A DNA stretch of 38,814 nt from an uncultured Phycisphaeraceae bacterium. Its GTDB lineage: Bacteria; Planctomycetota; Phycisphaerae; Phycisphaerales; UBA1924. This document shows positions 54 through 18,278 of this stretch, piece after piece; the first letter of the stretch is position 1, and each line of letters begins with the position of its first letter. A program made the position numbers and the translations under genes. The notes beneath the pieces are model-generated. The model saw nothing but the letters and a program-made list of their open reading frames with translations, was not told the origin of the DNA and made no database searches. The DNA lies in NCBI GenBank assembly GCA_964652945.1, contig CAZZDW010000024.1, forward strand, positions 1 through 38,814. The letters are read 5' to 3'.

Positions 54-215
54 CCGGCCGGCATGCTCGTTGCCGACGAAGAGGCTGTTTTTCCGGTTGA
101 GCACGACCCGCTTCATCTCACGCTCGGACGCATTGTTGTCGATCGGCACGCACCCCACATGTTCGTGCTGGCGTGCGAAGACCGTCAGCGTCTGCCACTG
201 GTTGAGCGTGTAGCA
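54..215 (-). pseudogene. IS66-family transposase (TnpC) C-terminal fragment
   Basis: The minus-strand translation ...ARYCYTLNQWQTLTVF..VPIDNNASEREMKRVVLNRKNSLFVGNEHAGR* matches the conserved IS66 TnpC C-terminal block (..NQWxxLxxF..IDNNxxERxxRxxxxxRKNxLFxGS..). It is cut at its 5' side by the IS481-like element and stops 9 aa after RKNSLF, so it is also truncated at its 3' side. Confidence 0.6.
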
Positions 216-1905
216 GTAGCGGGCGAGCGAAGGATGTAGGCGAATAATGCCTCCGCTCATCATGCTGCAAGCGGAAGTATGAATAAATCAGGATGTCGCC
301 ACGGTTTTCGGGGTTCGCACGCCCAAGGCCGCCATATGCAGGTGGGCCAGGAGATTGTGCGCTCTCTTTACGCGGCTTCTCGGCGTTCTCGAACGTGGAT
401 GACCGGATAGCAGAGCCGTCGGTCGTTGCTCACGTGCCGCCGCTCGAGTTGGATCACCGGTTCGACACCTCCTTTCTGCCTATAGCTCACAGCCTCGGTC
501 TTCAAAGTTCCCGCTTCAACTTCGAGCGGCGTCAGTGTATCATGGGCCGCATGCGGTCGGAAGCGGTTGTGCCATTCCCGGTAGGCGTCGAGTTGCTGTT
601 GCACAACCGCGACGTTGGTGGACAATACCGACTTCGCCGCCCAGGCTTTGATATCGCGGAAGACCCGCTCGACCTTGGCGTTGAGTTGCCAGGTGTGCAC
701 CTGGCAACGAACATGCGTCACACCCATCTTGCTGACGGCGTTACGGAACTCGCGTCGGAACTGGCTGCCGTGGTCGGTCACGATAAACCGCGGCGTTGCA
801 CCACTCTCTTGAATAGCGGCCTCGATCATCGCAGGCAGATCGGCCGTCTTCACTCGTCCTTTGAAAGCTTTCAATGCAACGAGCTTTCGGCTAAATCCGT
901 CGAGCAAGGCCGCGATCTCGACATTCCACCACAAGAGCTTGACCGTGGTGATATCCAGGTGCCACACCTTGTTGGGCTCTTCTGGATGTTGCACATGATC
1001 CGGCGCCTGCGTAACGGCTCGCTCAGGGTGCTTCTTGGTTGGATTTGTCGGGTGTTCCTGAAGGATCCGCCGCACGCTGGTCCTGCTCAGCTTGATACCG
1101 GCACGCGCGATGTGACGAGCGATCGTCCGGCTGCCGAACTCCGGCTCCGGGAACATGCACCGCATCTCGCGGACCAACCAGCGAACGGACTCGTGCGCCT
1201 TGTTCCACGGCGGCCCGCCGAGCAGGTTCTTCGCTCGGAGTTTGTCATCCACGGCGTTCATCCAGTTGCGGATGGTGTTGGGATGCACGCCGAACCGCTC
1301 GGCGGTCTTCTTCGGCGACCACCCGCGCAAACGCATCACCTGCAGAATCTCGGCACGTTCCTCCGGCACGAAGTGCGGCCGCTCCTTCGGTTCTTTGCGG
1401 AGCCGCTGGGATCGGAAGATCGCGAGTTCGCGCTCAAGCAACGCGTTCTCGGCATAGAGCCGGTCCCGCTCGTTCATCAACCGAACGAAGGACGAAGAAT
1501 GGTCGAGCATCCGAGTCCGCGCATCGACGGCGGCACACATGAACAGCGTCGTGATCCGCTCGGCTGCGCGCCATATAGAAGGTTGGGCCACGGTGAAGTC
1601 CCTCAAGCCGCTGAAGCCGTGTCCACGCTGGCTCCGCTCGGCAGGGCCAACCGTATGTTGCAGCATCGCGGCACGAAACGAGCTATCGGACTTTCTCGGC
1701 CGCATTGGACGCCTCCAACGGGGCGCACAAACTCGCTGGCCCACCTGCAAACGGGGCCTGGAGTAGGGAAGAGGCCCCAAAGTCACACCGAGAGGTTCGT
1801 ATCCCGAATCTCTCCCGAGATTCATCCTTGATACGAACCCGGTGAGGTGAATTCGCCGAACGGCGGCCGCGGAGACCATTGCCCGTATCGACGCTCGCCC
1901 TCCGC
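215..1905 (-). mobile_element. IS481/IS3-superfamily insertion sequence, copy A (inverted relative to copy B)
   Basis: About 1.7 kb is alignable end-to-end with the reverse complement of 7462-9185 (~90-95% identical by eye). It contains one long DDE/rve transposase ORF. The boundaries were estimated from where the two copies stop aligning. Confidence 0.75.
368..1540 (-). CDS. DDE transposase (HTH + integrase-core/rve domain), IS481-like
   Basis: HTH segment (WSPKKTAERFGVHPNTIRNWM). DDE core segments are WHLDITTV.., ..FIVTDHGSQFR.., ..QLNAKVERVFRDIK... A single ORF of ~390 aa fits IS481 rather than the two-ORF IS3 arrangement. The start is uncertain: the ORF stays open upstream to 1990, and Met151 (MCAAV, 1540) was chosen here. 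Confidence 0.75.
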   Translation of the reverse strand: MCAAVDARTRMLDHSSSFVRLMNERDRLYAENALLERELAIFRSQRLRKEPKERPHFVPEERAEILQVMRLRGWSPKKTAERFGVHPNTIRNWMNAVDDKLRAKNLLGGPPWNKAHESVRWLVREMRCMFPEPEFGSRTIARHIARAGIKLSRTSVRRILQEHPTNPTKKHPERAVTQAPDHVQHPEEPNKVWHLDITTVKLLWWNVEIAALLDGFSRKLVALKAFKGRVKTADLPAMIEAAIQESGATPRFIVTDHGSQFRREFRNAVSKMGVTHVRCQVHTWQLNAKVERVFRDIKAWAAKSVLSTNVAVVQQQLDAYREWHNRFRPHAAHDTLTPLEVEAGTLKTEAVSYRQKGGVEPVIQLERRHVSNDRRLCYPVIHVRERREAA

Positions 1906-1967
1906 TCCCGCTGCTCACGCAGCAGACGCGACCACCCAGCCGCCGATAACGCCTTCTTGACCATCCA

Positions 1968-2274: not shown

Positions 2275-3324
2275 CTATGGCTGCCCCGAATCAATCTCTT
2301 TTCCTCCGAGATCGATCCCACGCAAGCCTCCACGGGTGTAACGGTAATACCCAAATACAGAATCGGTCTCGTGTCCGCTTGCCGTCGGCGGCTCCCACGT
2401 ATCCGGTTTATATGCATACTGGAATCCGATCGGACTCTTCGGATTCCACGGATCCCACCCGCGATTCGTGTCCTTGGTCTGCTTGTACGAGACCGAGCCG
2501 TCGAACATGAGGACGTTCACCTTCGCGTTCGGGATCGCGTAGTAGGTCTCCCGCTTCTCGTGCCGTGCGTGCCCCTCATGCAGGAACACCTTCTGCGATG
2601 GAAAGCCCACCGTGTTCAGCGTTTGCTGAGAGAGCTTCCACTGGACTGTGTTGAACACAAAGTGATCGCCGGTGGAGTTTCGCATGCGTTTATTGTCAGC
2701 AGTCAGAATATTCTTGCTCTGTGAGCCGTCGAGCGCACTGACGGTTACTTCGTACGTCGAAGAAAACGCCCAACGGATGCCCGGGTTTCCTGGCGAGATC
2801 GGGGTTGTCACTGCTGCGAGAGACTTCGCCGGATACGGCGGAGCGCCTCCCGCCATAAAGTTGTTGATATCCCGGGCCCATGTCAGGCGTATTTGATCAG
2901 ACGGACAGGTGTACACCGGCTCGGGCAGACGCGCCGCAAGGTAATCAAAGAGCACGAAATGTCCATACAGGATCTGCGGCAAGAGCATCACATCCTTGTT
3001 CATCGGCAATGACGTCAAACGTCGGAATATGTCCGTAAACTGGGACTGCTGTGCACTCATATCAGAGGACGCGCTTCGAAGGTCTGCAAAGCTGGACTTT
3101 ATCACATCATGCTGTTTCCACGAGTAGTTCCAGATGAAGTCCTTGTGGTCGATGCCGTAACTTGCCGTGGACACGCCGAGCTGCTGCATCTGCGTCATGC
3201 ACAGCGTCGTCCGCGCCACTCTTCGTGCGGAAGCCAGCGCCGGCAGCAGCATCGCGACGAGCAGCCCGATGATGGCGATAACGACCAGCAACTCGATCAG
3301 CGTGAACGCCTTTTTGCCAACCAT
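2275..3324 (-). CDS. DUF1559 / H-X9-DG prepilin-type N-terminal cleavage-methylation domain protein (planctomycete pseudopilin-like)
   Basis: N-terminus MVGKKAFTLIELLVVIAIIGLLVAMLLPA is a class III (prepilin) signal with the invariant Glu. The C-terminal ..HEGHARHEK..NVLMFDGSV.. fits the H-X9-DG motif. ATG start with SD (ggagatt). Sits downstream of the 852-aa gene on the same strand. Confidence 0.85.
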   Translation of the reverse strand: MVGKKAFTLIELLVVIAIIGLLVAMLLPALASARRVARTTLCMTQMQQLGVSTASYGIDHKDFIWNYSWKQHDVIKSSFADLRSASSDMSAQQSQFTDIFRRLTSLPMNKDVMLLPQILYGHFVLFDYLAARLPEPVYTCPSDQIRLTWARDINNFMAGGAPPYPAKSLAAVTTPISPGNPGIRWAFSSTYEVTVSALDGSQSKNILTADNKRMRNSTGDHFVFNTVQWKLSQQTLNTVGFPSQKVFLHEGHARHEKRETYYAIPNAKVNVLMFDGSVSYKQTKDTNRGWDPWNPKSPIGFQYAYKPDTWEPPTASGHETDSVFGYYRYTRGGLRGIDLGGKEIDSGQP

Positions 3325-3399: not shown

Positions 3400-5958
3400 T
3401 CAGCAGCCGGCCAGCCACGCGGTGAGGAAGTCGAAGATGTCCTGAACAGTGACGCCGTTGACGCCGTTGAAGTCAGCCGAGGCGTTCCCGGCCAGCCACG
3501 CGGTGAGGAAGTCGAAGATGTCCTGGACGGTCACGCCGTTCACACCGTTGAAGTCCGCCGGGCAGCAGCTGATGTTGCCGCCCTGCTTCAGACGCAGGGT
3601 CCAGGAGTTGACCGCGCCGCCGCCGGATGCCGCGTCACCCGTGGCCACGAGCGTCCAGACGCCCGCGGCGGATTTGCCGTGGAAGTTGGCGCGCAGTCCA
3701 TTGTTGACATTGGCCGATCCCGCGGGGCGGTAGACGCCCGCCGGGATCGGATCGACCCCGAGGTTCGCCGCGTCAAAGAGCGTGGTCGCGCCCGCATCGT
3801 TGAAGGTGTAGACGCCGGCAAGGTCGAGTCCCGCATTGCCCGCCGGGGAGAAGCCGTACCGGCCGCGGTGCGTCAGCGGGACATACATGCCGTCCTTGAC
3901 GAGAGCGAGGCGAACATCGCCCTGCGAACTGTGGCCGATGTCCACTTCCACTTCAACATCTTCCACGGTGAAGGTGTCGGCGATCGTGACGCTCCCGCTG
4001 GTGTAGGGGACAAAGCTGTTGCCGATCTGGTTGTTGCCAAACATGGCGATGGAGCCGCCCGCGTAGCTCGATGTGGTGCTGTTGTGAGAAACGCAGACAC
4101 TGCCGTCGCCGCCGTAGGCGCCGCCGCGTGCCGCACAGTCCTGCTGCGAGGTCAGCAGGCACCCGTCCTGGGTGCAGCAACGACCATTGGCCGAGGGCTC
4201 GACGAGCAGTTCCATCTCCGCGAACCCGTAGTCGCCGTTGTTAGAGGACTGAGCCTGTCGCGAGGCGAACTGGAAGTAGTAGGTCGTGCCGGCGACGACG
4301 TTCCACGTGTCGATGCCGTTGGTGGCTGCCGCACCGTCCGGGATGCCCGATATGGGAGTGATTTGCCCCATGTTCACGCACCGCACCAGTGACGAGGCGC
4401 TGGTGGGACAAACGCCGGGCGCCGATTCGGGGAAGATCGCCAAGCGGCTCCCCAGCGCCACGGGGAAGCTGCGGTTCATGATGGAGGCCTTTCCCGAGAC
4501 CGGGGCGACCCACTTGTACCAGGAATCCAGCGCCATCGGCGAGGTCGCGAAGAACGGGTCCGCCCCGCACCGAAGTGAGGTGAATGGTGCGACCGGCGCG
4601 GTAGCCCGCACATTGTGGAATGTGAACACGCCCGTGCCGCTGATGGGCGTAGCGGTCGCGCAGTCGTCGCCGACGCTGGGCAGGAGCGAGAACTTCACAT
4701 CCATCGGAGTGGGGGGAGACGACGTCGCCGAATCGACATGGACATTGATGAAGTACGTGGTGTTCGCCAGGGTCGGGAAACCAAACCGCTGAATGCCTAG
4801 GAACCCGTAAAATCCGCAGAATGTCGCCGTCGCCGATTCCGGACAGCTGCCGGAGGCCCACACGCCCACCGCCACGGTCTGGGTGCTGAACTCCTCGATA
4901 AGCATGACGCCGGGCTCCGAACCCGAGTCGTAGCGGAACCAGACGCCGTAGTTGGAGCCCGCCGCAACATCGCAGAACCCGCCGTCGATATCATGATTGG
5001 CGCCGGAGTTGTCTACCTGAAACCGTGCGGGCATTGAGGAGATGACAAGGGCGTCGGAACAATCATCGTTGGCCGGCGGCGTGACGTAGTAAAAAATGAT
5101 GTTCATCGGCACCGTGGGAACCGTCGCGGCGTTGTTCTGCACTAGGAAGTAGTAGGTTTTTCCGCTCGTGATGGGAACATTGAACCCGGTGGTGGTGTGA
5201 CAGAAGGTCGGTGATGTGCCGGGGGCAGGACAAGCGGCCGACCCGGTGTCCATCTCCCAGATGCCAACCGCGGTATTCTGTGGCGTACTCTCGCTGACCT
5301 TAAGAAGGCCCGTCAGGGTGCAGTCATACTTGAACCAGACGCCGCATGTGCCGACCCCGCGTGAGGTGGTGGCGCATCCAATATTATGAAGATCGTCTCC
5401 CGCCGTGGTGTTGTCCACGACGTATTCCGTCTCCAGATCAATCACCTGCGCGTCGGCGCATTGGTCGTTTGCCGGGGGCACAACCTGGTAGAACACGATG
5501 ACCATCGGCACAGTCGGAGCCGTCGCCGTATCGGAGAAGACCAGAAAGTAATAGGTCTTCCCGCTCTGCACATTGATGTGAAAAGTATCCGTGGCGGCGC
5601 AGAACGTCGAAGGCCCCCCGGCAGGGCAGGTCGCGCCGACCGTATCCATTTCCCAGATGCCCGCGGCGATGTTCTGTGTAGAGGCTTCCTCGACACGAAG
5701 AACGCCGGTGAAGATCGAGTCGTAGCGAAACCACACCCCCGCCCTCATGCTCGTTTGCGACGCGAGGTTGCAGGCCCCAACGTCAAACGGCTCGTTGGCG
5801 GCCGTTGTATTGTCGACATTGTAAATGTCGCCAAGCGTCACGTTCTGCGCAGTTGCACAGTCGTCGTTCCCAGGCATGGCAAAGACGCCCAGCGGCAACG
5901 CCAATAACCCGAGTAACGTGAGTGCAAAGCAACATTTCTGAGTCAACCAAGAGCTCAT
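3400..5958 (-). CDS. Large secreted multidomain protein: signal peptide, 4x ~135-aa PPC-like domains (P-x-N-D-x-C-x-x-A motif), P-domain-like beta module, 2x dockerin/EF-hand-like repeats at the C-terminus
   Basis: N-terminal signal MSSWLTQKCCFALTLLGLLALPLGVFA. Four internal repeats each begin PANDDCATAQ / PANDQCADAQ / PANDDCSDAL / VGDDCATATP and each contains ..GxWxxYD / WEMDT..GKTYYF... The segment ..DVEVEVDIGHSSQGDVRLALV..AAGVWTLVATGDAASGGGAVNSWTLRL resembles a proprotein-convertase P-domain. The C-terminal DFNGVNGVTVQDIFDFL x2 fits the D-x-N-x-D-G dockerin/EF-hand pattern. No subtilisin catalytic motifs were seen. Confidence 0.6.
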   Translation of the reverse strand: MSSWLTQKCCFALTLLGLLALPLGVFAMPGNDDCATAQNVTLGDIYNVDNTTAANEPFDVGACNLASQTSMRAGVWFRYDSIFTGVLRVEEASTQNIAAGIWEMDTVGATCPAGGPSTFCAATDTFHINVQSGKTYYFLVFSDTATAPTVPMVIVFYQVVPPANDQCADAQVIDLETEYVVDNTTAGDDLHNIGCATTSRGVGTCGVWFKYDCTLTGLLKVSESTPQNTAVGIWEMDTGSAACPAPGTSPTFCHTTTGFNVPITSGKTYYFLVQNNAATVPTVPMNIIFYYVTPPANDDCSDALVISSMPARFQVDNSGANHDIDGGFCDVAAGSNYGVWFRYDSGSEPGVMLIEEFSTQTVAVGVWASGSCPESATATFCGFYGFLGIQRFGFPTLANTTYFINVHVDSATSSPPTPMDVKFSLLPSVGDDCATATPISGTGVFTFHNVRATAPVAPFTSLRCGADPFFATSPMALDSWYKWVAPVSGKASIMNRSFPVALGSRLAIFPESAPGVCPTSASSLVRCVNMGQITPISGIPDGAAATNGIDTWNVVAGTTYYFQFASRQAQSSNNGDYGFAEMELLVEPSANGRCCTQDGCLLTSQQDCAARGGAYGGDGSVCVSHNSTTSSYAGGSIAMFGNNQIGNSFVPYTSGSVTIADTFTVEDVEVEVDIGHSSQGDVRLALVKDGMYVPLTHRGRYGFSPAGNAGLDLAGVYTFNDAGATTLFDAANLGVDPIPAGVYRPAGSANVNNGLRANFHGKSAAGVWTLVATGDAASGGGAVNSWTLRLKQGGNISCCPADFNGVNGVTVQDIFDFLTAWLAGNASADFNGVNGVTVQDIFDFLTAWLAGC
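3411..3572. repeat. Tandem duplication of an 81-bp (27-codon) unit
   Basis: 3411-3491 and 3492-3572 are ~90% identical. They encode the two C-terminal ADFNGVNGVTVQDIFDFLTAWLAG modules of the 852-aa protein. Confidence 0.85.
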
Positions 5959-6134: not shown

Positions 6135-7376
6135 ATGAGCAAGATGGCCCTTACAGAAACGGTCGGCGCCTTGGGTTATCGAGACTCAAACAAATTGCGT
6201 ACGTCCATATCGAACAGCGCCGACGGCCACGCCGATCAAGCGACGCAGGCGATGGCGAGGTTGTGCAGCGCGCTCGGCGCCCTGCTGGAGAGTCTGCCTT
6301 CGCATCCCACCAGGGCGACGGACGTTGCGAGCGCGATCGGCGTGAATCCTCAGTTGGCGTGGCAGGTTTTTCGAATGGCCGGGGCCGCGAACGCGCTCGC
6401 CGCCGTGCAGTTTCTGCCCACGAGCAACCAGCTCGCACGGGTGATCGAGGCGGCCCGCGCTTCAGGCGCAAAGCCCGGCGTCGTCAAGCGCGCCAAGGAG
6501 GCAAGCGATGCGATCGACGCCTTCCTCATCGAGCACGAGATGGATCGACGCGAGTTCGAATCGCTGATCGGCTCGCTGGCGGCAGGTGGCGCCGAGCAGG
6601 TGGACATCAAGCACCGGCGGGCGTTGCACCGCAGCCACGCGCACTACTACGGGATACAGTCAAAAACCGTCTATTCCTGCTCCATCTTGCACCCCGGCGG
6701 GGAGGGAGAGAGCTACCGCCAGGTCTCTCTGCTCGGGTATGTCAACTTGCACGCGCTCAGGCCCAACGTGTCGATGACACTCTTCCAGACGGCGGCCGCG
6801 TGCGACCCGGATGGTGCTCGGGTGCCCACGGCGAGCACTCCCTGCTTGCTTGAGGGATTCGATGCTGGTCGGAGTGTGGAACTCGTGCATGAAGGGGAGG
6901 AAGACGGCCGCGTGTTCACCCGTATTGTCTTTCCCGGCATCGGACGCGGGGCGGCGGTTTCGTTCCTGACCATGCAGACCCATAAGGATGGGAACACTGC
7001 GCAAGATCCTCATCCGTGGATAACCGTCCAGCTCACGGTGCCCGCCGAGGCGATCGTGTTGGACATCCTCGTGCCGACGGCGTGGGGAACATCCGGGCAG
7101 GCCGTTGTCAGAACCTATGCCCGACGCGCCCAGCCGATGAAGGTTCTCGAATGCCGATCCGTGGACATCGTCCCGTGCAATGAACAAGCCACCTGCACGC
7201 GCGAGGTAACAGAACTTTCGCCAACCGCCGATGCGCCCGGCGTTCGCGAGGCCATCGGTCGCATGCTTCGAAAAAAGGGATGGGGGCAAACCAAGTTTGA
7301 CCTTTACCGCTGCCGCGTGGCATTTCCGGTGCTCTACTCGGCGATTCATTTGAGAGTGTTGCCGCAGGAAGGATAA
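6135..7376 (+). CDS. Hypothetical protein (413 aa), no recognisable domain
   Basis: ATG start with SD (aggtg). A long ORF with ordinary codon composition and an alpha-rich N-terminus. No motif was recognised. Confidence 0.5.
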   Translation: MSKMALTETVGALGYRDSNKLRTSISNSADGHADQATQAMARLCSALGALLESLPSHPTRATDVASAIGVNPQLAWQVFRMAGAANALAAVQFLPTSNQLARVIEAARASGAKPGVVKRAKEASDAIDAFLIEHEMDRREFESLIGSLAAGGAEQVDIKHRRALHRSHAHYYGIQSKTVYSCSILHPGGEGESYRQVSLLGYVNLHALRPNVSMTLFQTAAACDPDGARVPTASTPCLLEGFDAGRSVELVHEGEEDGRVFTRIVFPGIGRGAAVSFLTMQTHKDGNTAQDPHPWITVQLTVPAEAIVLDILVPTAWGTSGQAVVRTYARRAQPMKVLECRSVDIVPCNEQATCTREVTELSPTADAPGVREAIGRMLRKKGWGQTKFDLYRCRVAFPVLYSAIHLRVLPQEG

Positions 7377-7461: not shown

Positions 7462-9185
7462 GGAGCGGAGGGCGAGCGTCGATACGGGTATTGGTCTCCG
7501 CGGCCGCGTTTCGGCCGATTCACCTCATCGTGTTCGTATCAAGGATGACACTCGGGAGAGATTCGGGATACGAACCCCTCGGTGTGACTTTGGGGCATCT
7601 CCCCCCACTCCCGGCCCCGTTTGCAGGTGGGCTAGCGAGTTTGTGCGCCCCTTTGGCGGTGTCCAATGCGGCCGAGAAGGTCCGATAGCTCGTTTCGTGC
7701 CGCGATGCTGCAACATACGGTTGGCCCTGCCGAGCGAAGCCAGCGTCGACACGGCTTCCGCGGCTTGAGGGACTTCACCGTGGCCAAACCTTCTATATGG
7801 CGCGCAGCCGAGCGGATTACGACGCTGTTCATGTGTGCCGCTGTGGATGCGCGGGCTCGGATGCTCGACCACTCCTCGGCCTTCGTTCGGTTGATGAACG
7901 AACGCGACCGGCTCTACGCCGAGAATGCGTTGCTGGAGCGGGAACTCGCGATCTATCGCTCCCAGCGCTTGCGCAAGGAGCCGAAGCAGCGTCCGCACTT
8001 TGTGCCGGAGGAACGTGCCGAGATTTTGCAGGTGATGCGTTTGCGCGGCTGGTCGCCGAAGAAAACCGCGGAGCGCTTTGTCGTTCACGCCAAGACCATC
8101 CGCAACTGGATGAACGCCGTTGACGACAAACTTCGAGCCAAGAACCTGCTCGGCGGGCCGCCGTGGAATAAGGCGCACGAGTCCGTCCGCTGGTTGGTGC
8201 GCGAGATGAGAACCATGTTCCCGGAACCGGAGTTCGGCAGCCGGACGATCGCTCGCCACATCGCACGAGCCGGCATCAAGCTGAGTCGAACAAGTGTGCG
8301 ACGTATGCTGCAAGAAGAACCGCCGAGCCCAACGAAGAAGCACCCTGAGCGGGCCGTGACACAGGCACCCAATCATGTGCGTCATCCAGAAGAGCCCAAC
8401 AAGGTGTGGCACTTGGATATCACCACGGTCAAGCTCTTGTGGTGGAATATCGAGATCGCGGCTCTGCTCGATGGATTCACCCGGAAGATCGTCGCGTTGA
8501 AGGCTTTCAAAGGACGAGTGAAGACGGCCGACCTGACCGCGATGATCGATGCGGCTGTTCGCGAGAGCGGTGGGAGGGGGGCGCCACGGTTCATCGTGAC
8601 CGACCACGGCAGTCAGTTCCGACGTGAGTTCCGCAGCGCTGTCAGCAAGATGGGTGTGACGCATGTCCGCTGCCAGGTGCACACCTGGCAACTCAACGCG
8701 AAGGTCGAGCGAGTATTCCGCGACATAAAAACTTGGGCGGCCAAGTCGGTACTGTCCACCAACGTCGCGGTTGTGCAAAAACAACTCGACGCCTACCGGG
8801 AATGGCATAACCGATTCCGACCGCATGCCGCCCATGATACACTGACGCCGCTGGAAGCAGAAGCGAGAACTTCGAAGATCGAGACAGTCAGCTACACGCA
8901 GAAAGGAGGTGTTGAACCAGTCATCAAACTCGAGCGGCGGCACGTGGGAGACGACCTGCGGCTCTGCTACCCGGTCATCCACGTGCAAGAACGCCGCCGA
9001 GAAGCCGCATAAAGGGAGCGCACAAACTCCTGGCCCACCTGCATATGGCGGCCTTGAGCGTGCGAATCCCGAAAAGCGCGGCGACATCTTGATTGATTCT
9101 CCTTCCGCTTGCAGCCATGATGAGCGGAAGGCATCATTCGTCTACACCCTTCGCTCGCCCGCTACTCCCGCTACTCGCCACTCTC
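7462..9185 (+). mobile_element. IS481/IS3-superfamily insertion sequence, copy B
   Basis: Aligns with the reverse complement of copy A. Its outer end (9135-9185) supplies the last 17 codons and the stop of the 9134-10030 gene. Confidence 0.75.
7831..9012 (+). CDS. DDE transposase, IS481-like (intact paralogue of 368-1540)
   Basis: About 93-95% aa identity to the copy A transposase, with the same HTH and rve motifs. Differences include FVVHAKTIRNW vs FGVHPNTIRNW and ESGGRGAPRF vs ESGATPRF. Start chosen at the equivalent Met (MCAAV). The ORF is open upstream to 7666. Confidence 0.75.
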   Translation: MCAAVDARARMLDHSSAFVRLMNERDRLYAENALLERELAIYRSQRLRKEPKQRPHFVPEERAEILQVMRLRGWSPKKTAERFVVHAKTIRNWMNAVDDKLRAKNLLGGPPWNKAHESVRWLVREMRTMFPEPEFGSRTIARHIARAGIKLSRTSVRRMLQEEPPSPTKKHPERAVTQAPNHVRHPEEPNKVWHLDITTVKLLWWNIEIAALLDGFTRKIVALKAFKGRVKTADLTAMIDAAVRESGGRGAPRFIVTDHGSQFRREFRSAVSKMGVTHVRCQVHTWQLNAKVERVFRDIKTWAAKSVLSTNVAVVQKQLDAYREWHNRFRPHAAHDTLTPLEAEARTSKIETVSYTQKGGVEPVIKLERRHVGDDLRLCYPVIHVQERRREAA

Positions 9186-10030
9186 GCTATTCGGCCATTT
9201 TCTATACTGCGGTATGTAAGCCACATACATGACGCCGAAAGAGCAAAAACCAAATTAATCGCCGCTGTTTGACCCAGATCCCCACCTGGCGATAGCGGGG
9301 CTGTTGCATTCAAACTTATTATTAGATCAGAAAAGAATGGCGCGAAAGCAAAAAAAACTGAAATAAGCACGAGACATGACACAAACTTGCGATACTTCAT
9401 CATAGCTTGCGGCCCATGAGAAATCACACAAATAAAGGTTCGCCATGAAGAAATTGAATGAACTATAAGCACTAAACCAACTGCTCCGGTCAAGAGCGGT
9501 GCAAGTTTAGTAGATATTCGACTATGCAACCCAAATTCGCGAACTGCTACCCATGACCATAAAACAATTCCGGTTAGCGTAAAAAATATTAACCATCCCT
9601 TTATTCGTTTAGATTCGCCATGACAGATAGTCCAAATGCGACTAAGCAATCGACTTCCATTTGCTAAATATACGACCAGCACAGCAAGGTAAACGCCTAC
9701 AGCAACAAATCCTATGGATGCTACATCTTGTAGCCGTGTCCACAACTCTTGCGGTCTGGAAAAACCATTGTGATCTAAGACGAGAGTTACAATATGAATG
9801 CAAAGCGCGATAAAAGCAAAACTAATAGGAGCCACACCAGCGAAAAACACAATTAACGCAAGTCGACGGATTGCACTCGCTTGCTCTTGATTAATAGTAT
9901 CTTCTAATGGCGGCATGACTACACACCGCCATCCACCTTCGTGTCCGCATTCTGGACAAGCCGTTGTTGGTGGCAATCCTGTAAGATCATAACCACATTG
10001 ACGACAAAGATATACTGATGCCGGTTTCAT
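9134..10030 (-). CDS. Zinc-ribbon + polytopic membrane protein in a low-GC islet; candidate RHS immunity protein with its 3' end replaced by IS sequence
   Basis: The N-terminus C-R-Q-C-G-Y-D-L-T-G..C-P-E-C-G is a double CxxC zinc ribbon, followed by about 6 hydrophobic helices. GC is ~42% vs ~65% background. The ATG lies 8 nt after the RHS stop codon. The last 17 aa (..RVASSGSSGRAKGVDE*) are encoded by the terminal repeat of IS copy B. Confidence 0.6.
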   Translation of the reverse strand: MKPASVYLCRQCGYDLTGLPPTTACPECGHEGGWRCVVMPPLEDTINQEQASAIRRLALIVFFAGVAPISFAFIALCIHIVTLVLDHNGFSRPQELWTRLQDVASIGFVAVGVYLAVLVVYLANGSRLLSRIWTICHGESKRIKGWLIFFTLTGIVLWSWVAVREFGLHSRISTKLAPLLTGAVGLVLIVHSISSWRTFICVISHGPQAMMKYRKFVSCLVLISVFFAFAPFFSDLIISLNATAPLSPGGDLGQTAAINLVFALSASCMWLTYRSIENGRIARVASSGSSGRAKGVDE

Positions 10031-10038
10031 GCTTTATT

Positions 10039-13000
10039 CTACTCAGAACATGTGGACGAAGACGGCGTTGGCGTGGCCGGTTGGGACGGTGCGGCCGGTG
10101 GAAAGATTCCTGGGACGATCGTTCTCCATCCTGGCGGACACGCTTTACCAAAGACCATGTATTGATGTTGAGCATGACAACTCGCCTTGCATTGAGCTAT
10201 GGTGATTCCTGCTCTAACTTGTTGCAATCGATAGTCAGCTTCACAAATGGCAGTTGCTGAAGTATACCCAATGCTACAAAGGAGACGGCATGCGCTCGCT
10301 CCCGTTTTGCCTGGAGCCGGGCAAATAGCTATGCAAGCACTCCGCGTGAAGGCTGCAGCCGCATTACATGCGGCATATCGAGCATCGATTGCAGCATTGA
10401 CTGTTACAGGACAAGCTGCTATGCACTTCTGTGCCTCAACTGTATCTTCGCACAGACTATGTGCTGGATACAACATTGGACTACCGCCCGGTACTCTGGG
10501 CGCGATCGTGCCAGGTGCCGGAATTGGCGTGAAAGGTGGAGTCGGTGGAGTCGCGGGAACAATATACCCAGGACCTGTCGGACTTACTGGTGGCCATGGA
10601 CTAGCGAGACCGGTCGAATCAGTCGCAGCTAATGGGTTTGATCTCAAATACGCATACAAGCTCATCCCATCCACATATCCTAGCGGGTCTCTTCTGAGCC
10701 AACTTCCGAGGCGGTCGTGGTAGACGCGGTTTCGGCAGTGCCACAGCCACGTGAGCTGCATCGACGGCGTGATGTACGCCACGGCGTCCGACTCGTACCC
10801 GGCGTAGCCCTTGCGGTTGTTCACCGTGTCGTCGGTCAGGAAGCCCCAGCCCTTGGGCCGATGCGTGCTCTGCGCGTCGGCGTACACGATCGACCAATCG
10901 CTGAACTCGACCGTGCCGTCGAGGTCGATGTCGCCGCGGACGTCGTAGAACGACGTGTCGAACCACTCGCGGACGATGATCGGGTCGGAGCTGGGATCGT
11001 TCAGGCCCGTCGCGTTCACGTCGCCCAGCGGGATGCAGTACGGCGTGCCGTACGCCGAGTACCGGATCTGCTCCACCTGCCCACCCACGCTGCTCAACAG
11101 CGCCACCACGTCCGCACGCCAGTTCTGGCAGTAGTACCGGCGTTCTTCTAATGTCCCGTCGGCCGCCGAGAGCCACCCCGAGTTCGCGTCACGGTCGCGC
11201 AGGATCGCCAGGTCGATGTAGCTGCCCGATCCACCCATGCCCGCGTGGTGGTACGCGAACAGCTCCTTGGGGTCCGTGTCGGCATTGCGGAAGCTCGCCA
11301 CCATACGCCACCGGTCATCGTAGGCGAAGTAGTACCACGGGTCCGAGCCGTCCGTGTCGGCGTCGTAATCCGCGTCGTAGTGCCACGCGATCCGGTGGCC
11401 CAGGCCGTTGTACCGGTACTCGATCACCACGTTGCCCGTCCCCTCGTGCAGCACGCGGCACAGACGACCGAACGCGTCATTGATATACAGGTGCCGGACG
11501 CCGTCGAAGAACATGTCGCCGCGCTTGTTGTGGCTCGGAGTCCCCGCACCGATCGCCGTCATCTCGTTCGCGTTGTTGTGCGACCGCGAGCGGCTGTGCT
11601 CCGGGTTGATGAACACCGTGTCGATGAAGTCCCCGTCGCCGTTGATATCCAGCCGCTCGAAAGCCCAGTTGCCCGTCTGCGTGAGCGCGGGGTTGCCGGA
11701 GGCGTCCATCCAGCGATGGTCGCGGGCGCGGGTGGCGATGCTCCCGCCGGAGATCTCGCCCTGGTCGTCGCGGAGGAGCCGATCCAGATCGTCGATCGTG
11801 TACAGCGCGTCGAACACGTGCGGGCCGTGGACCGACGTGGTGGACTTGCGCTGGATGTTGTCGATCGTGTGCGTGATGTTCGAGTTGCGGTCGTAGCTGA
11901 TATCCGTATGGTAGAAGTCGACGTCGGTCGCGAGGTCCTTGGTCCACCGGCTGGAGATCGTGCGGTTGAACCCGTCGAGCCGGTTGTAGACGCCGGCAGC
12001 GGCGCCCGCCGCGTACAAGCTGGTGTAGATATCCGCCTCGGGCAGGTCGGTCCGTGCGGCCCAGTCGACGCCCGCGTATGTGTACTCACTGACAATCACC
12101 GGCGACCCGGTACCAATACGGACCTGGCTCACGCGGCTGGCGGCGTCGTCGTAGAGATGACCGGCCGAAGAAAGATACTGGTAATCCAGGACCTGCTTGG
12201 CCGTGCCGCTGGAGATGTGGTAGAAGTTCTGACCGGTTCGGCGGACCGCCTGGACACCCGTCGCGGGGGCCGACTTGGCGTAGGTAAACTCGACCTTGTA
12301 ATCGTCGGGCGTGCCCGCGCCGACCGCCGAGTTCACGTCCTGGCGGAAGGTCTCGGTGTTCCCCCAGTCGTCGTAGGTGTACGCGACCTCGTCGGTGATA
12401 GAGCCCGACCCGACGGTCGCGTTATCCCACTGGGTGACCTTCTGCACAAAGCCGCGGCTGTCATAGGTGGTGCTGATCCGCTTCACGGCGGCGTTAAAGC
12501 TGTCATAGCCGCTTGACGGGATCGTCGTCGCCCGGCGATGGGTGAGCCGGCCCGCCTTGTCGTAATCCTGCGCGATGACCACGCCGGACTGGTCGGTCTT
12601 GATGATCTCCTGGCCGAGCGTGTTGTAACCGAAGAGCACGTCGCGGTCCGTGTCCGCCTGCATGGCCGTCTGCGGCGGGTAGACCACGCGCGAGAGCATC
12701 CGGTTCGAGTTGAGCTTCGAGCCGTTGCTCGTCGTGGCCGCGTGCTCGTACGTGGTGACCTGGTCGTCGCTGTCCTCGGTCCCATCGCCGTCGATGTCGA
12801 CCCATTCTTTGGACTTCAGGCCGTTGGTGTATTCGTAGCGCGTGTAAATATCATGGTCGCGGTTCGCGGTAGCCAGCGAGCCGTTCTCGTAGTTGGCGAT
12901 TTGGGTGATGGTTCGAAGCGCCCGGTCGTGCGCGACACGCGTCTTTGCGCCCGCCGTCCCGGTCGGATCAGACCCCTTCGTCGGCAACTCGGTCTCGATG

Positions 13001-16000
13001 GGTACGCCGTAGTCGCTATACGTCGTCGACGTGACAATCACGCTGCCCGTGGACCGGTCCAACGGCGTGGATGGACGCGTGAACGCGGTGCTCGAAGTCG
13101 TGCCGTCGCCAACGATCCCGAAGGTGCCGTACTGCACCGTTATCTCCGGGCGATCGAGTTCGTCGTAGTACATCGCAGTAATTTGTACACGGCCGTTGAC
13201 ATCGGTTGCGGTCAGCGTGGTCGGGTCGCCAGCACCCATGCTCTCGCTGTCGGCGTCCAGCTCGCCTGTTGTGGATTCATCGCCCGCGTGCCGCTGGATG
13301 CTGACGGTGAAGAGCGCGTTGCCGGTCTCGCTCTCGTAGATCGTTTGATTTTCGGCGAGCACGATATCGCCGCTCACGTCGGTTTGACCGCTGGCGTACA
13401 CCTCGCCATACGTGTCCTCGTTGTCGTCGGTCTTCGCGAGCACAAACTGGTGCGTCGGCCGCCCCAGGCTGTCGTACCGCGTCTTGGTGAGCTGCTGCCC
13501 TTGCGTCTTGATCACACGGCCAACCGGGTCGTACCAGTTCTGCGAGACAAGCGTATCGTCATCCGAGCCATCTGAGTCATCGATCTTGTGGGCGACGTTC
13601 TTCCAGGCTCTGCCCCGTTCGTCGTAGGACGTCTCTGAAAGGCTGAGCCTGTTCGTCGCGACCGAACTCGGATCACTCGATGCGCTCAATCCCGCAGCGC
13701 TGGAGTACGTTCCCATGACCGTCATGCGGTTCATGTTGTCGTACTTGCTGAGCACATGAGGTATCGCAGGCGACACCCCGTCCGTCGGGTTCGTCTGCAG
13801 GATCATCCGACCACGGTAGTCATAGGCGTAAGTCGTTTCTCGCTGGTCCGTGCTCATGCCGTCCCATGCGCCGTCCGGATCGGTCATGACACTGGTGAGA
13901 TGGCTGTTCTTCCCCGAGACCAGCGTCGTCGTCGATTGCGACTGCCCGTCGTACCGGCGACGCTCGACACGCACCATGTCGCCCCCCATCCCATTGATTC
14001 CCTCGCCGTTCGCCTCGCTCCAGGCGGTATCGTCCGTGCCCGTCCATAGCTCCGAAATCCTGCCGATCGCGTCGTACACCGTCCGGTCAATGGTCCCTGT
14101 CGGATCCTCAACGCGAACTACGCGACCCATACCATCATGATCGTAGCTCGTCACGTCGCAGACGACCGAGGGGCTTCCCCCGCCGTTGTCCTGCCAGTTG
14201 CCGCTCGTGCGGATCGTGTGATACGAGCGGGTTTCAAGGAGACGAGTCCCGGAACTGTCATAGATCGACACCTTCGGTCGATAGACCAGTTCTCGGTTCG
14301 TACCCCTGAACGCCACGTCAAGGGCGTCAATCGGGTCGGACAAGTTATGATCAATCCAATCCGCTTTGGCAAGCGTGCCTGTTGAAATCCCCGCATCCGG
14401 GATCGCCAACGTAGCGCTGAACTCAATCTTTCCAGCTGGATTGATAACCTGATACGAAACGGGTCCATAGTACGTCGTGCCGTCTACCCGGGGAAAGTGC
14501 AACCGGACCGCCATGTGCGCTTGATCAAAGAAGGACAGAATGCTATAAAAATTTTCTGTAACGCGGCCATTGGGCAGCGTGGTCTTGGTTAGCCGCCCTT
14601 GTGAGTCGTACATGTATTCGGTTACCAGGTGTTGCCCACCGTTGGCGGATGGACTACCGAGAAATGTTGAGACCTCACCCGAGGCGAAGTCGCCAGAATA
14701 AGATGCGGGATCGGCGTCATCAATACGCTTGATCAACAGGCGGTTGGCGTCGTAGAGTGTATACGTGATAACGCCCTCTTCGCTGATGGAGAAAGCAACG
14801 GTCCCATCTTGACGATAGTGATTGAATCGAGAAGTTGCCGAGTCGGGACCATTATTTCCCGCCGAGACTTCCGCGTTAATCGTTTCGATCGTCTTGGGCA
14901 CTATCGAGAGCGGCAACGATCCTCCCCAGAAATCTCGATCATATGCTGTAACGTAATATTTTGAGGTATCGTAGTACAAGTGCGACTCAGCATGAAATAA
15001 CCGGTCTTCCACTGCGAGGGGTATGTACACAAAGGTGCTTCCAATATTAAGTATTGGCTCCTCGTACTCCGTATCCGTGAGATAATTCAGATCGGGCGAA
15101 TCCGGATATGGCGACTTATCGCCACTTGCAATCCGTGGACCATATATGAGTCCACCGCCTACGTCCGGGTACACGGCGAAACCACTCGACCCGCTCGTGA
15201 CAACACCTGTGGAATGGTTGTAGCCGGTATTGACTTCTGGGCTGTGCTTTTCGACAACCGCACCATACAAACTCTCACGTTCGACATATTCTACCCATCG
15301 CGTTGAAACACTTGTGGCTGGATCTGTCGTCGTTGTCACCTTCGAAAGCGACTGACCTGCCTCGTCAAAGTACTGCGTGATCCACAACCCATCAGGACGC
15401 TGCATTATCGTCCGGAACTTCGCCTCGGTGTCATAGAAACCGCTGCTATTGGAGTACCCCGGCGCTCCCTCGTACCTAAATGCAAATGTCCCATTCGCCC
15501 CTCCCCCCGTGCAACCGCACTGACCATTAAAGAGTCCTGTCGCCACCTTCTTCGGGTCGGCGGCGCCGGAGTCATAGGTCAGAAACGCCGCCGTGTACGG
15601 CTTCAGGTCTGTATCACTGACAGTATCGAGCGATGTCGAGTCTATTGCATCGCTGAATCCATACTGATGCGTTCCGCCCGGCTCGACGACTGCTTTGAGC
15701 TGCCCGGCGTACCCGCTCCCGGATGCATAATACCTGTAGTAGGTCTTTCTCCATTCAAGTTGTGTATCATTTGTGACAAGGAACGCAGTCGCCATCTTGA
15801 GTTGTCCGGGTAATCCGTCATCGTCATCATCTACTAACACGGACGATTGGTAATACCAATACAAAACGGCCGCAACAGTGGCGACGCCGGTTGGCGGATC
15901 AGATGGATTATGCCAATCTCCTCCGGTCTTGTTACTTGCCACCACGCCAACCAGCCGTTGTACACCGTCGATGCTTGAGTAAGTATATTCGTAGTACCTT

Positions 16001-16854
16001 TCAGCGGCGTCGTAGACTCGAAGAACCCTTCCCGCCGTGTCGTAGCCGTCGTTGATGGCATCATCAATATCTGTTGGATGACCCACGTACATCGTGTTAC
16101 CCGCGGCGTCTGAACTTTTCCAGAGCTGCCACGCGGCACGAGTGTCCGTACCATTGTCGCCTATGAAGATAGTCTTCCCGCCCCGAGTATCGTGCAGGGT
16201 GTACAGATCGGGGTCGCCGCCGGTACCAGGAGCAATCTCGAAAATTCCACCCGCCCCATTCACCGGTCCGAAGACCGTGTCGCTCCCGTATTGTTGACGG
16301 TATTCTGAGAATATCCCAGCGCCGGTGATCAAGTAGATCACATCATCGTAGTCGCCGCCGTTCACGCATACCCGGATTTCCGGCTGCGAGTTCTGGAACC
16401 AGTTCTTGCCCTGCGGGCCATCGGATGTCGAGGCCTGCATCTGGTTGTAGCTTCGACCGACGACCACCTGAGGTCCGATCGTAGGAAGCGCGATGTCTAC
16501 GACACTCTCGTCGTAATTGCCAGTAAGCAGGTTGACATGACCAACCATTATGTCACAGCACGGCTCGTGCGACCCGAAGCCCGCCAAGCCCGTAGCTGGA
16601 AAAGACCAAATTGAGCTGAATCCTGACGCCGCGGCACAACTCCGCACGTTGCTGTTGAGTGCAGTTCCACGGTAAAGCAACCCAGGAGCAGCTCCCTGGA
16701 CCCGTGTGGGATCTGCACAATATGAGTCAATCAACTCCCCATCTTTGGGCACGCCCGTGCCGAAGACGATGCTCGAACCCAAGAGCATGCTCATCGCTGC
16801 CCCAGCGCACGGCAGGACACGTTGAAATACACGACGACGCAATGTGCTGGACAT
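10039..16854 (-). CDS. RHS/YD-repeat family polymorphic toxin (~2270 aa) with signal peptide and a C-terminal Pro-rich linker + Cys-rich domain
   Basis: Dozens of YD repeats (YDxxGR..: YMYDSQGRLTKTT, YDAIGRISELW, YDYRGRMILQ, YDERGRAWKNV, YDSLGRPTHQF ...). The core ends with the canonical ..YHDRLGSWLRRDPLGYVDGMSLYAYLRSNPLAATDSTGL (RHS DPxGL cap). About 190 aa follow: a P-rich stretch, then 16 Cys in ~120 aa. DNA GC drops to ~52% from ~10700 to the stop. The start was taken at MSSTLRRRVF..(ATG 16854) where an N-terminal signal-like segment begins. The ORF is open upstream to 16995. Confidence 0.9.
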   Translation of the reverse strand: MSSTLRRRVFQRVLPCAGAAMSMLLGSSIVFGTGVPKDGELIDSYCADPTRVQGAAPGLLYRGTALNSNVRSCAAASGFSSIWSFPATGLAGFGSHEPCCDIMVGHVNLLTGNYDESVVDIALPTIGPQVVVGRSYNQMQASTSDGPQGKNWFQNSQPEIRVCVNGGDYDDVIYLITGAGIFSEYRQQYGSDTVFGPVNGAGGIFEIAPGTGGDPDLYTLHDTRGGKTIFIGDNGTDTRAAWQLWKSSDAAGNTMYVGHPTDIDDAINDGYDTAGRVLRVYDAAERYYEYTYSSIDGVQRLVGVVASNKTGGDWHNPSDPPTGVATVAAVLYWYYQSSVLVDDDDDGLPGQLKMATAFLVTNDTQLEWRKTYYRYYASGSGYAGQLKAVVEPGGTHQYGFSDAIDSTSLDTVSDTDLKPYTAAFLTYDSGAADPKKVATGLFNGQCGCTGGGANGTFAFRYEGAPGYSNSSGFYDTEAKFRTIMQRPDGLWITQYFDEAGQSLSKVTTTTDPATSVSTRWVEYVERESLYGAVVEKHSPEVNTGYNHSTGVVTSGSSGFAVYPDVGGGLIYGPRIASGDKSPYPDSPDLNYLTDTEYEEPILNIGSTFVYIPLAVEDRLFHAESHLYYDTSKYYVTAYDRDFWGGSLPLSIVPKTIETINAEVSAGNNGPDSATSRFNHYRQDGTVAFSISEEGVITYTLYDANRLLIKRIDDADPASYSGDFASGEVSTFLGSPSANGGQHLVTEYMYDSQGRLTKTTLPNGRVTENFYSILSFFDQAHMAVRLHFPRVDGTTYYGPVSYQVINPAGKIEFSATLAIPDAGISTGTLAKADWIDHNLSDPIDALDVAFRGTNRELVYRPKVSIYDSSGTRLLETRSYHTIRTSGNWQDNGGGSPSVVCDVTSYDHDGMGRVVRVEDPTGTIDRTVYDAIGRISELWTGTDDTAWSEANGEGINGMGGDMVRVERRRYDGQSQSTTTLVSGKNSHLTSVMTDPDGAWDGMSTDQRETTYAYDYRGRMILQTNPTDGVSPAIPHVLSKYDNMNRMTVMGTYSSAAGLSASSDPSSVATNRLSLSETSYDERGRAWKNVAHKIDDSDGSDDDTLVSQNWYDPVGRVIKTQGQQLTKTRYDSLGRPTHQFVLAKTDDNEDTYGEVYASGQTDVSGDIVLAENQTIYESETGNALFTVSIQRHAGDESTTGELDADSESMGAGDPTTLTATDVNGRVQITAMYYDELDRPEITVQYGTFGIVGDGTTSSTAFTRPSTPLDRSTGSVIVTSTTYSDYGVPIETELPTKGSDPTGTAGAKTRVAHDRALRTITQIANYENGSLATANRDHDIYTRYEYTNGLKSKEWVDIDGDGTEDSDDQVTTYEHAATTSNGSKLNSNRMLSRVVYPPQTAMQADTDRDVLFGYNTLGQEIIKTDQSGVVIAQDYDKAGRLTHRRATTIPSSGYDSFNAAVKRISTTYDSRGFVQKVTQWDNATVGSGSITDEVAYTYDDWGNTETFRQDVNSAVGAGTPDDYKVEFTYAKSAPATGVQAVRRTGQNFYHISSGTAKQVLDYQYLSSAGHLYDDAASRVSQVRIGTGSPVIVSEYTYAGVDWAARTDLPEADIYTSLYAAGAAAGVYNRLDGFNRTISSRWTKDLATDVDFYHTDISYDRNSNITHTIDNIQRKSTTSVHGPHVFDALYTIDDLDRLLRDDQGEISGGSIATRARDHRWMDASGNPALTQTGNWAFERLDINGDGDFIDTVFINPEHSRSRSHNNANEMTAIGAGTPSHNKRGDMFFDGVRHLYINDAFGRLCRVLHEGTGNVVIEYRYNGLGHRIAWHYDADYDADTDGSDPWYYFAYDDRWRMVASFRNADTDPKELFAYHHAGMGGSGSYIDLAILRDRDANSGWLSAADGTLEERRYYCQNWRADVVALLSSVGGQVEQIRYSAYGTPYCIPLGDVNATGLNDPSSDPIIVREWFDTSFYDVRGDIDLDGTVEFSDWSIVYADAQSTHRPKGWGFLTDDTVNNRKGYAGYESDAVAYITPSMQLTWLWHCRNRVYHDRLGSWLRRDPLGYVDGMSLYAYLRSNPLAATDSTGLASPWPPVSPTGPGYIVPATPPTPPFTPIPAPGTIAPRVPGGSPMLYPAHSLCEDTVEAQKCIAACPVTVNAAIDARYAACNAAAAFTRSACIAICPAPGKTGASACRLLCSIGYTSATAICEADYRLQQVRAGITIAQCKASCHAQHQYMVFGKACPPGWRTIVPGIFPPAAPSQPATPTPSSSTCSE

Positions 16855-17160
16855 GCTTGTTTCTCGCAGAATGAAGGAATTCTGCTTCAATCGACTTTCT
16901 TCAATCGACGCACACGTGAATACTTGCAGAGAAGCGACGCTACCTATCGCGTACAACGAGGGGCAACCTGCGCATCCTCTCATCAGGTCCATCATATGTC
17001 AAATGTTCATTGCAGTTAGTGGATAAATTGTGCAGAATTTATTTTATATGCGATACTTGCAATCCCCATCAAAGCACGGTATACAAGGGGTGATACGTAA
17101 GATGAGTTTGCTCGCATAATGTCGTATTGATCCTGAATATACCTTTTTCAAGGGGTTTTC

Positions 17161-18024: not shown

Positions 18025-18056
18025 TCTCCAGTATTTGTGATTGTTTTTTCTTATCA

Positions 18057-18083
18057 CACCGGCCACGTCGCCGGTGTTTTTTA
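18057..18083 (+). terminator. Rho-independent terminator (caccggc-cacgtc-gccggtg + TTTTTT)
   Basis: A 7-bp GC-rich stem with a 6-nt loop followed by a T6 run, 33 nt after the TAA of the 287-aa gene. Confidence 0.7.
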
Positions 18084-18278
18084 TCGCATCCCTCCACTTG
18101 AATCCACCACGAAGGAACATGCCGTTTTACTTGACCAAGAAGGCGTGTGAAAGCATCCGCCAAATCGAATATCTGCTTCTTTGCCTGTGTTTTTCTGGTA
18201 TGCTGCTCGTTCGGCTGGGGGGGTCGTCATGTGAGCGAGGCTGGTCGCGGCAGGTTACACAGCGGAGCGGGCGGCAGT

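Follow-up and report, generated by a model that had tools for sequence, protein, structure and literature searches.

What does a planctomycete RHS protein carry beyond its conserved core, and is the membrane protein encoded directly after it the partner of that cargo? We examined this question in a 38,814-nucleotide (nt) stretch of DNA (contig CAZZDW010000024.1; hereafter the window), which probably derives from a Phycisphaerales-type Planctomycetota genome. Its minus strand encodes a long RHS protein with a Cys-rich C-terminal end (the tip), followed by a gene for a polytopic membrane protein that is in turn abutted by an insertion sequence (IS). The reading that we favour, with moderate confidence, is that the tip and the membrane protein form the variable 3′ end of a locus for an RHS polymorphic toxin exported through Sec, as a cassette in which the tip would act in the cell envelope and the membrane protein would be a candidate immunity protein.

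The RHS protein is encoded within an open reading frame (ORF) at 10039..16995 on the minus strand. This is the longest possible frame; the annotated RHS/YD-repeat protein, 2271 amino acids (aa) from MSSTLRRR, occupies 10039..16854, and its database copy (P0002) starts at 16794 and is 2251 aa long. The protein matches Pfam RHS_repeat (E = 1e-10), NCBIfam YD_repeat_2x (54.2 bits, cutoff 15.8), and Rhs_assc_core TIGR03696 (39.1 bits, cutoff 32.5), with a weak match to DUF6531. Its N-terminus, MSSTLRRRVFQRVLPCAGAAMSMLLGSSIVFG, resembles a Sec signal peptide. Pfam scans of the RHS protein and its neighbours in the window returned no PAAR or other type VI secretion system (T6SS) family. Pfam likewise found no NHL or FN domain in the RHS protein, and no further RHS fragments were found within the window.

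Alignment with the core ends of YenC2 and TccC3 places the end of the RHS-associated core, RRDPLGYVDGMSLYAYLRSNPLAATDSTGL, at 10606..10695 (minus strand). This segment reads ...RRDPLGY...TDSTGL and keeps both conserved autoprotease aspartates. The solved core fragments 4igl_B, 6l7i_G, 4o9x_A, 8qjd_A, and 8cp6_B all terminate at the residue aligned with the GL of the window protein (GL or GM), and the teneurin-like protein (TLP) chains 9pt5_A and 9ifo_A in the PDB match the core end only (E = 0.09–0.2). In TcC and Rhs proteins, the two aspartates of DPxG and DxxGL catalyse self-cleavage after that residue. The window protein is predicted to be cleaved likewise, after the final leucine of its core end. 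An earlier reading made from the sequence alone (the sequence-only reading) had described an RHS protein whose conserved core ends at a DPxGL cap and is followed by about 190 aa; this holds, with a tail of exactly 188 aa in a full length of 2271 aa.

These 188 aa comprise a Pro-rich linker (ASPWPPVSPTGPGYIVP...MLYPA; 10462..10605), a Cys-rich helical domain (HSLCED...CPPGWRTIVPGI; 10105..10461), and a C-terminal Pro/Ser-rich tail that ends in ...SSSTCSE (10042..10104), all on the minus strand. The domain contains 12 cysteines, including four CX3C motifs, and one more lies near the C-terminus, so that the tip has 13 cysteines (6.9% of its residues) rather than the 16 counted earlier. Alanine accounts for 22% of the tip, and its net charge is +4. 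The mean Kyte-Doolittle hydrophobicity of the domain is 0.29; with a maximum 19-residue mean of 1.21, the tip shows no hydrophobic membrane-spanning hairpin of the colicin type. No match to the tip was found in NCBIfam or in Pfam, in the latter even at E ≤ 10, and a profile search of PDB sequences was equally negative. The impression that this tip is unlike the usual catalogued toxin tips is thus borne out by the family search.

The composition of the DNA changes stepwise across this boundary. GC content is ∼0.655 at 10700–10899, 0.49–0.56 at 10000–10699, and 0.40–0.43 at 9200–9899. GC at third codon positions (GC3) falls from 0.74 in the core to 0.39 in the tip and 0.32 in the downstream gene, and stands at 0.83–0.86 in the neighbouring secretin and ATPase genes. 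Windowed GC and GC3 therefore both confirm the drop from core to tip to next gene that was noticed earlier.

The downstream gene (9134..10030, minus strand; GC 0.44, GC3 0.32) encodes a 298-aa membrane protein. It starts 8 nt past the RHS stop (AATAAAGC) and is the sole gene between that stop and IS copy B. Near its N-terminus the protein carries a zinc-ribbon motif, CRQCGYDLTGLPPTTACPEC (aa 9–28; 9947..10006, minus strand; CRQC-x13-CPEC), which is followed by six transmembrane (TM)-like helices. Both the 8-nt gap and the architecture, an N-terminal double-CxxC ribbon before about six TM helices, are as the sequence-only reading had them. The tip and the membrane protein were each modelled from the single sequence with AlphaFold2 (AF2). 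The membrane-protein model has a predicted local distance difference test score (pLDDT) of 54 overall and 74–76 at ribbon residues 11–30. Pfam zinc-ribbon matches are all below threshold, to RUBY_RBDX and DUF7129 in the window protein and to Zn_ribbon_3 and DZR in its relatives. Lysine and arginine residues number 11 on the proposed cytoplasmic side and four outside, a distribution that predicts an N-in/C-in topology and so a cytoplasmic location for both the ribbon and the C-terminal tail. A search of 5.8 billion proteins for homologues retrieved only the protein itself, as a single-member cluster. We infer from its position only that this protein is a candidate immunity protein.

To place the tip within a family, we ran an exhaustive phmmer search against 1.84 billion cluster representatives. 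The search recovered the protein itself and three clear relatives: P0003, a 2285-aa RHS protein (45% identity in the tip, E = 8e-25); P0004, of 147 aa (E = 9e-16); and P0005, a 236-aa RHS end fragment (E = 4e-9). The search also returned, in fifth place, the repeat protein P0006, which was discarded as a false positive. The tip family is thus rare and uncatalogued, with four clear members among the 1.84 billion representatives, and all three relatives lie on RHS C-termini or orphan RHS fragments. A word-indexed protein search with the Cys-rich domain gave zero matches and missed the protein itself too, a five-sequence tip profile run against the word-indexed database returned P0004 only, and a scan of JGI metagenomes yielded no confirmed relative of the tip. 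The RHS tail at locus L013, from the Planctomycetota isolate PNC22, is a distant or possible fifth relative, of which only the last 26 aa align significantly (pairwise E = 4e-5).

Several features are conserved within this family, namely the linker motif WPPxxPxGPxY and a C-terminal ...CPxxWxT(I/V)VP. All 12 domain cysteines and the terminal cysteine are kept in P0003 and P0004, and the polar residues H2, S3, D7, Y30, R60, and Y102 are invariant in the three closest members. P0002 and P0003 are collinear over ∼2300 aa at 36% identity, which makes the tip, at 45%, better conserved than the shell between these two proteins. Loci with more similar core ends (46–52%) bear unrelated tips.

The three homologous tips all directly precede a low-GC multi-TM gene, and two of these three genes encode a zinc ribbon. 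At L078, the full-length RHS protein P0003 is followed by a 167-aa protein with two TM segments and a C-terminal CTHCGYDLRGICGTKSCPEC ribbon (GC 0.48, versus 0.65 for the locus). At L080, an RHS end fragment with its tip precedes a 259-aa protein with an N-terminal ribbon and five TM segments (GC 0.47, versus 0.67 for the locus), and another RHS fragment comes next. At L079, on a TARA ocean contig, the tip belongs to an array in which RHS end fragments and TM proteins alternate, and its partner has five TM segments and no ribbon. The TM parts of the four tip partners show no similarity above shuffled controls in Smith-Waterman comparisons with shuffling (z ≤ 1.5).

Two further observations concern the arrangement of these loci. 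At L079:786-1890, an RHS core-end fragment (786–1496) overlaps the ORF of the tip P0004 (1447–1890) in a different frame, and the linker motif VWPPVNSPGPGYILP is found in the upstream frame, which points to a frameshifted orphan cassette or an assembly error. At L017, L068, L072, L079, and L080, two to four RHS end fragments stand in tandem, and every fragment has a separate Cys-rich tip and downstream TM gene. These are classic orphan cassette arrays.

Comparison across the clade indicates how much of this arrangement is shared. Scanning genomes with the C-terminal 563 aa of the RHS protein identified 77 related loci, mostly in metagenome-assembled genomes of Phycisphaerales and other Planctomycetota, from which 87 tails were extracted. 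These loci are 33–52% identical to the window protein over the core end, and the similarity stops at query residue ∼375–377, which is the DSTGL boundary. Just 11 of 2080 tail pairs are homologous. GC content lies below that of the core for the tip in 61 of 62 loci and for the downstream gene in 60 of 62. The earlier suggestion of a horizontally exchanged cassette therefore gains support from the related loci, where similarity ends at the GL boundary, tails are mostly unrelated, and tip and partner are low in GC. The companion claim that both modules are unusual is not supported by the same comparison. The median Cys fraction is 7.9% in the tails and 0.67% in the preceding cores, and at least eight cysteines are present in 71 of 83 tails. 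With its 6.9% Cys, the tip in the window is unremarkable in this company. The first downstream ORF has at least one TM segment in 53 of 62 loci (at least two in 33 of 62). Cys-rich tips and membrane partners, with or without a ribbon, are the clade norm.

The zinc ribbon is likewise tied to RHS ends. We searched all six frames of the related loci for the motif C..C.[YFHW]x4-22C[PSA][ED]C and found 34 of 37 occurrences within 1.5 kb after an RHS stop and on the same strand, a zone covering 8% of the six-frame space (binomial P = 7e-34). Of the other three, one follows an RHS end on the minus strand. Twenty-seven ORFs carry the ribbon at the C-terminus and nine at the N-terminus, and a TM segment is present in 36 of the 37. 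Ten ribbon TM proteins examined against Pfam contained no family, and their zinc-ribbon matches were sub-threshold only. Tails and partners are linked as well: the partners are homologous in two of the 11 homologous tail pairs, the closest tail pairs included, versus four of the 2069 other pairs (Fisher P = 4e-4). The partners in the remaining nine of the 11 homologous tail pairs have no detectable similarity, so the divergence of the partner in the window is usual in this clade.

Another kind of tail is also found at these loci. Fifteen of the 87 RHS tails contain HExxH, often as (L)xHELxH followed by a cysteine, in Cys-rich contexts (loci L001, L008, L014, L025, L027, L028, L029, L041, L050, L052, L056, L059, L067, and L068). 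These are probably disulfide-rich metallopeptidase tips, and several precede zinc-ribbon TM genes.

Several of these results weigh against a toxin–immunity pairing. The partners of homologous tips have only the zinc ribbon in common, and the ribbon itself occurs irrespective of tip type. Partner architecture also differs within the tip family, from six TM helices with an N-terminal ribbon in the window to two TM segments with a C-terminal ribbon behind the 45%-identical tip of P0003, which is not as expected for a strictly cognate immunity family. The ribbon accompanies unrelated tips and can be N- or C-terminal. Its role is therefore probably generic, and may be one of regulation, anchoring, or assembly, for example, rather than neutralisation.

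One alternative takes these results further and holds that there is no toxin–immunity pair at all. On this view, the RHS shell would display or release the tip as a module for binding or signalling, and the ribbon TM protein would be a generic accessory of RHS proteins: a membrane receptor, an anti-sigma-like transducer, or a factor for export or release, for instance. A ribbon common to the partners of unrelated tips at either terminus (nine N-terminal, 27 C-terminal) is what such an accessory would show, as is the lack of detectable homology between partners of homologous tips. A cytoplasmic zinc-binding domain joined to TM helices also recalls the zinc-binding anti-sigma factors. However, the extreme diversity of the tips, the GC break at GL, and the orphan arrays of tips and TM genes (L079 and L080) are hallmarks of conflict cassettes. 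The TM parts are moreover as variable as the tips, which is unsuited to conserved machinery, and the closest tail pairs do have homologous partners. We consider this alternative improbable beside the favoured reading of an envelope-acting tip with a membrane immunity candidate.

The fold of the tip bears on where it would act. In the AF2 model of the tip (pLDDT 63 overall, 67–83 in the core blocks), two long helices flank two short ones. The CX3C motifs of the domain are C14/C18, C44/C48, C59/C63, and C92/C96, and the remaining cysteines, C5, C33, C74, and C109, are single. We propose that these residues form nested disulfides on antiparallel helices, with the pairs C5–C109, C14–C96, C18–C92, C33–C74, C44–C63, and C48–C59. 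This map was derived first from the spacing of the cysteines and was checked against the relatives afterwards. The cysteines missing from P0005 are exactly C33, C48, C59, and C74, or two of the predicted pairs in full (chance 0.03 for a fixed map), and L013 lacks C14 and C96, a third predicted pair. The loss of cysteines in predicted pairs is real though indirect evidence of disulfides rather than metal sites, and disulfides in turn suggest folding and action in an oxidising compartment outside the cytoplasm. It counts against this argument that the model behind the map is of medium confidence, that five sequences were compared, and that the alignment of L013 is uncertain.

Hairpins of this general kind are known elsewhere. 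Plant alpha-hairpinins and the small Tim proteins form a rigid helix-loop-helix in which CX3C motifs cross-link the antiparallel helices, as proposed here. Those proteins contain two disulfides in 30–70 aa, whereas six nested pairs in ∼115 aa are proposed for the tip; the likeness is structural, and we claim no homology.

From these elements we can outline how the cassette might work. The RHS shell would enclose the 188-aa tip, and the aspartyl autoprotease (...RRDPLG...TDSTGL) would probably free it after GL. The released tip would consist of the conserved Pro-rich linker and a ∼115-aa antiparallel helical hairpin, probably held by six nested disulfides, and would fold and act in an oxidising compartment, which may be the periplasm, the outer face of the membrane, or the surface of a target cell. 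Action at a membrane or the envelope is plausible, and binding or modification of a component there is more likely than pore formation. In the producer, the six-TM protein with its cytoplasmic zinc ribbon would intercept the tip at the membrane. Tip and partner would move jointly as one low-GC module, with exchanges taking place at the GL boundary, and the insertion of the IS would have replaced only the cytoplasmic tail of the partner, leaving a protein that is probably still functional.

A more specific enzymatic proposal is that the tip is of the Lipocone type, i.e., a small helical domain that would cleave lipid-linked intermediates, lipid II-like ones among them, at the outer face of the membrane and would be neutralised by a membrane-bound protein. 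Lipocone tips (Min-Wnt, CapCone, and prok-TelC) are four- to five-helix domains on polymorphic toxins, RHS proteins included; lipid head groups are their predicted target, and the periplasm or the interior of the membrane the predicted site of attack (PMC12419801). The immunity proteins predicted for them are without exception TM proteins or lipoproteins, and one class has a four-TM core (PMC12419801). The small helical tip of the window locus and its membrane-bound immunity candidate resemble this arrangement, and the tip has polar residues that are invariant in its three closest members. In contrast, there is no sequence or profile match between the tip and Lipocone domains, and neither the proposed nested disulfide ladder nor the conserved Pro-rich linker is a Lipocone feature. 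We give this version a low probability, similar to that of a generic accessory.

A pore-forming or ionophore tip has about the same small chance of being correct. A hairpin would in this case insert into the cytoplasmic membrane of the target, with the polytopic partner acting against it inside the bilayer, as do the immunity proteins of colicins A and E1 or the CdiI of EC93. Integral-membrane immunity proteins for pore-formers are established. The colicin A/E1 immunity proteins and the two-TM Imm-CdiI are, like the window partner, integral to the membrane and encoded beside their toxin; they have no sequence relation to it, and we know of no protein of either type that carries a zinc ribbon. 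The tip is all-helical, and its alanine content and positive charge would also suit a pore-former. A further parallel is BiTLP, a YD shell with a Sec signal, whose small C-terminal domain is toxic only in the periplasm, perturbs membranes from that side, and damages membrane integrity (PMC13018210). Set against these similarities, the hydrophobicity peak of the tip falls short of a bilayer-spanning segment, six probable disulfides would resist the unfolding needed for insertion, and the ∼115-aa domain is much smaller than colicin pore domains. The hint of a pore-forming toxin in the sequence-only reading is thus disfavoured, both by the lack of a hydrophobic hairpin and by the probable stapling of the tip with six disulfides.

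Finally, a toxin that acts in the cytoplasm, with cysteines that bind metal or are reduced on entry and a membrane protein not involved in neutralisation, is very improbable: most characterised Rhs tips do act in the cytoplasm and Cys-rich sequences can bind zinc, but the protein starts with what looks like a Sec signal peptide and shows no PAAR or other T6SS marker in Pfam scans, the paired loss of cysteines fits disulfides over metal sites, and the stretch between the RHS stop and the IS encodes the membrane protein and no soluble immunity protein.

The favoured reading, an envelope-acting tip with a membrane immunity candidate, places the locus among known RHS systems with some differences. 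The locus shares with the RHS/YD-repeat polymorphic toxins (Rhs, WapA, and TcC) the YD repeats, a core with a DPxG...GL end, a hypervariable tip, a small gene directly downstream, low GC in tip and partner, and orphan arrays in relatives (Zhang et al. 2012, PMC3482391). It differs from them in its Sec signal, the lack of a PAAR, VgrG, or T6SS marker, an uncatalogued tip that is predicted to be disulfide-rich, and a polytopic partner with a cytoplasmic zinc ribbon in place of a soluble Imm family. The bacterial TLPs are close in overall design. They too have a Sec-signal YD shell and a small polymorphic C-terminal domain at the RHS core cleavage site, with diverse immunity genes directly downstream (PMC13018210). 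Unlike in the TLPs, an FN-plug and an NHL propeller were not detected in the window protein by Pfam, and Planctomycetota are not among the phyla listed in the passages of their description that were consulted (PMC13018210).

Taken by itself, the locus is one further RHS tip/partner cassette, and its added value lies in the clade pattern and the predicted fold. An RHS protein that depends on Sec and has no injection machine may be limited to envelope targets. Since nearly all tips in the clade are Cys-rich and most partners are membrane proteins, such a restriction may apply here. We conjecture, tentatively and with clearly less confidence than we place in the cassette itself, that the Sec-exported RHS proteins of Phycisphaerales and other Planctomycetota are a distinct branch of polymorphic toxins whose tips are all disulfide-rich and envelope-acting. 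Under the same tentative conjecture, the partners would be an undescribed, fast-evolving class of membrane proteins with a cytoplasmic CxxCGY...CPECG ribbon, and the window tip would found a new toxin fold, a helical hairpin with six nested disulfides. If so, the ribbon could couple interception of a toxin at the membrane to a cytoplasmic function, or it could be a shared module or recombination handle. The zinc-ribbon motif could also act as a search handle for RHS cassettes in Planctomycetota metagenomes. Neither this partner class nor planctomycete RHS cassettes turned up as described in a limited literature search, which does not in itself prove novelty.

The 3′ end of the membrane gene is shaped by the adjoining IS. 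Copy B of this element (7462..9168, plus strand) has an rve-type transposase ORF (7666..9012) and 17-bp terminal inverted repeats (14/17 matching). Its transposase matches the Pfam rve domain (E = 4e-15) and scores below the NCBIfam cutoffs for IS3 (130.9 bits, cutoff 160) and IS481 (116.9 bits, cutoff 224). Copy A (213..1908, minus strand) is 89% identical to copy B and inverted relative to it. Copy B adjoins the 3′ end of the membrane ORF, whose last codons, (G)SSGRAKGVDE plus stop (9134..9168, minus strand), come from its terminal repeat. The outer end of the 17-bp repeat at 9168 gives 11 IS-derived codons. Similarity between copies A and B fades ambiguously over the next 10–25 nt, to about 9178–9195, so that the IS-derived part may span 11 to ∼19 codons. 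The sequence-only reading had proposed 17 such codons; the IS origin of the 3′ end stands, and the figure of 17 falls inside this range without being fixed by it. The IS was absent from all fetched related loci, and a scan of JGI metagenomes with the IS end found no match, so the exact terminus cannot be fixed from other copies. All six TM helices lie upstream of the junction, and at most the cytoplasmic tail of the partner has been lost. No target-site duplication was seen at copy B, so a rearrangement, and not a simple insertion, may have produced the junction.

Copies A and B bracket a 5.5-kb segment, which may have been inverted or may be part of a composite element. It contains an N_methyl (pilin-like) gene at 2275–3324 and an 852-aa GBD_T9SS_assoc/P_proprotein gene at 3400–5958, both on the minus strand, and a 413-aa ORF at 6135–7376 on the plus strand. 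Within the 852-aa ORF, a 73-nt segment is repeated at 81-nt spacing with 92% identity (3407–3560). Copy A has a longer imperfect inverted repeat beyond its 17-bp ends and is flanked by a 58-nt direct repeat, 93% identical (2–59 and 1969–2026), the left copy of which lies at the window edge. This repeat has an ATG and the apparent start of a signal-peptide ORF (MRFTYRS...), and the two copies may be duplicated gene starts.

On the other side of the RHS gene, a diverging operon (17161–25353) encodes a 287-aa ORF without a family, a secretin (18147–20894), an ATPase of the type II secretion system/type IV pilus kind (20891–22591), unassigned membrane-like ORFs, and a TPR protein. We considered this operon as an export route for the RHS protein and rejected it; the P0003 locus has no such neighbours, and so we claim no link between the two. 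Beyond it lies a complete RtcR (sigma-54 activator)/RtcB/RtcA RNA-repair cluster (25423–29807). Further along, at 35070–38661, a VIT+VWA protein (35070–37505) is followed by two small ORFs, one of which has a dockerin domain (38128–38661).

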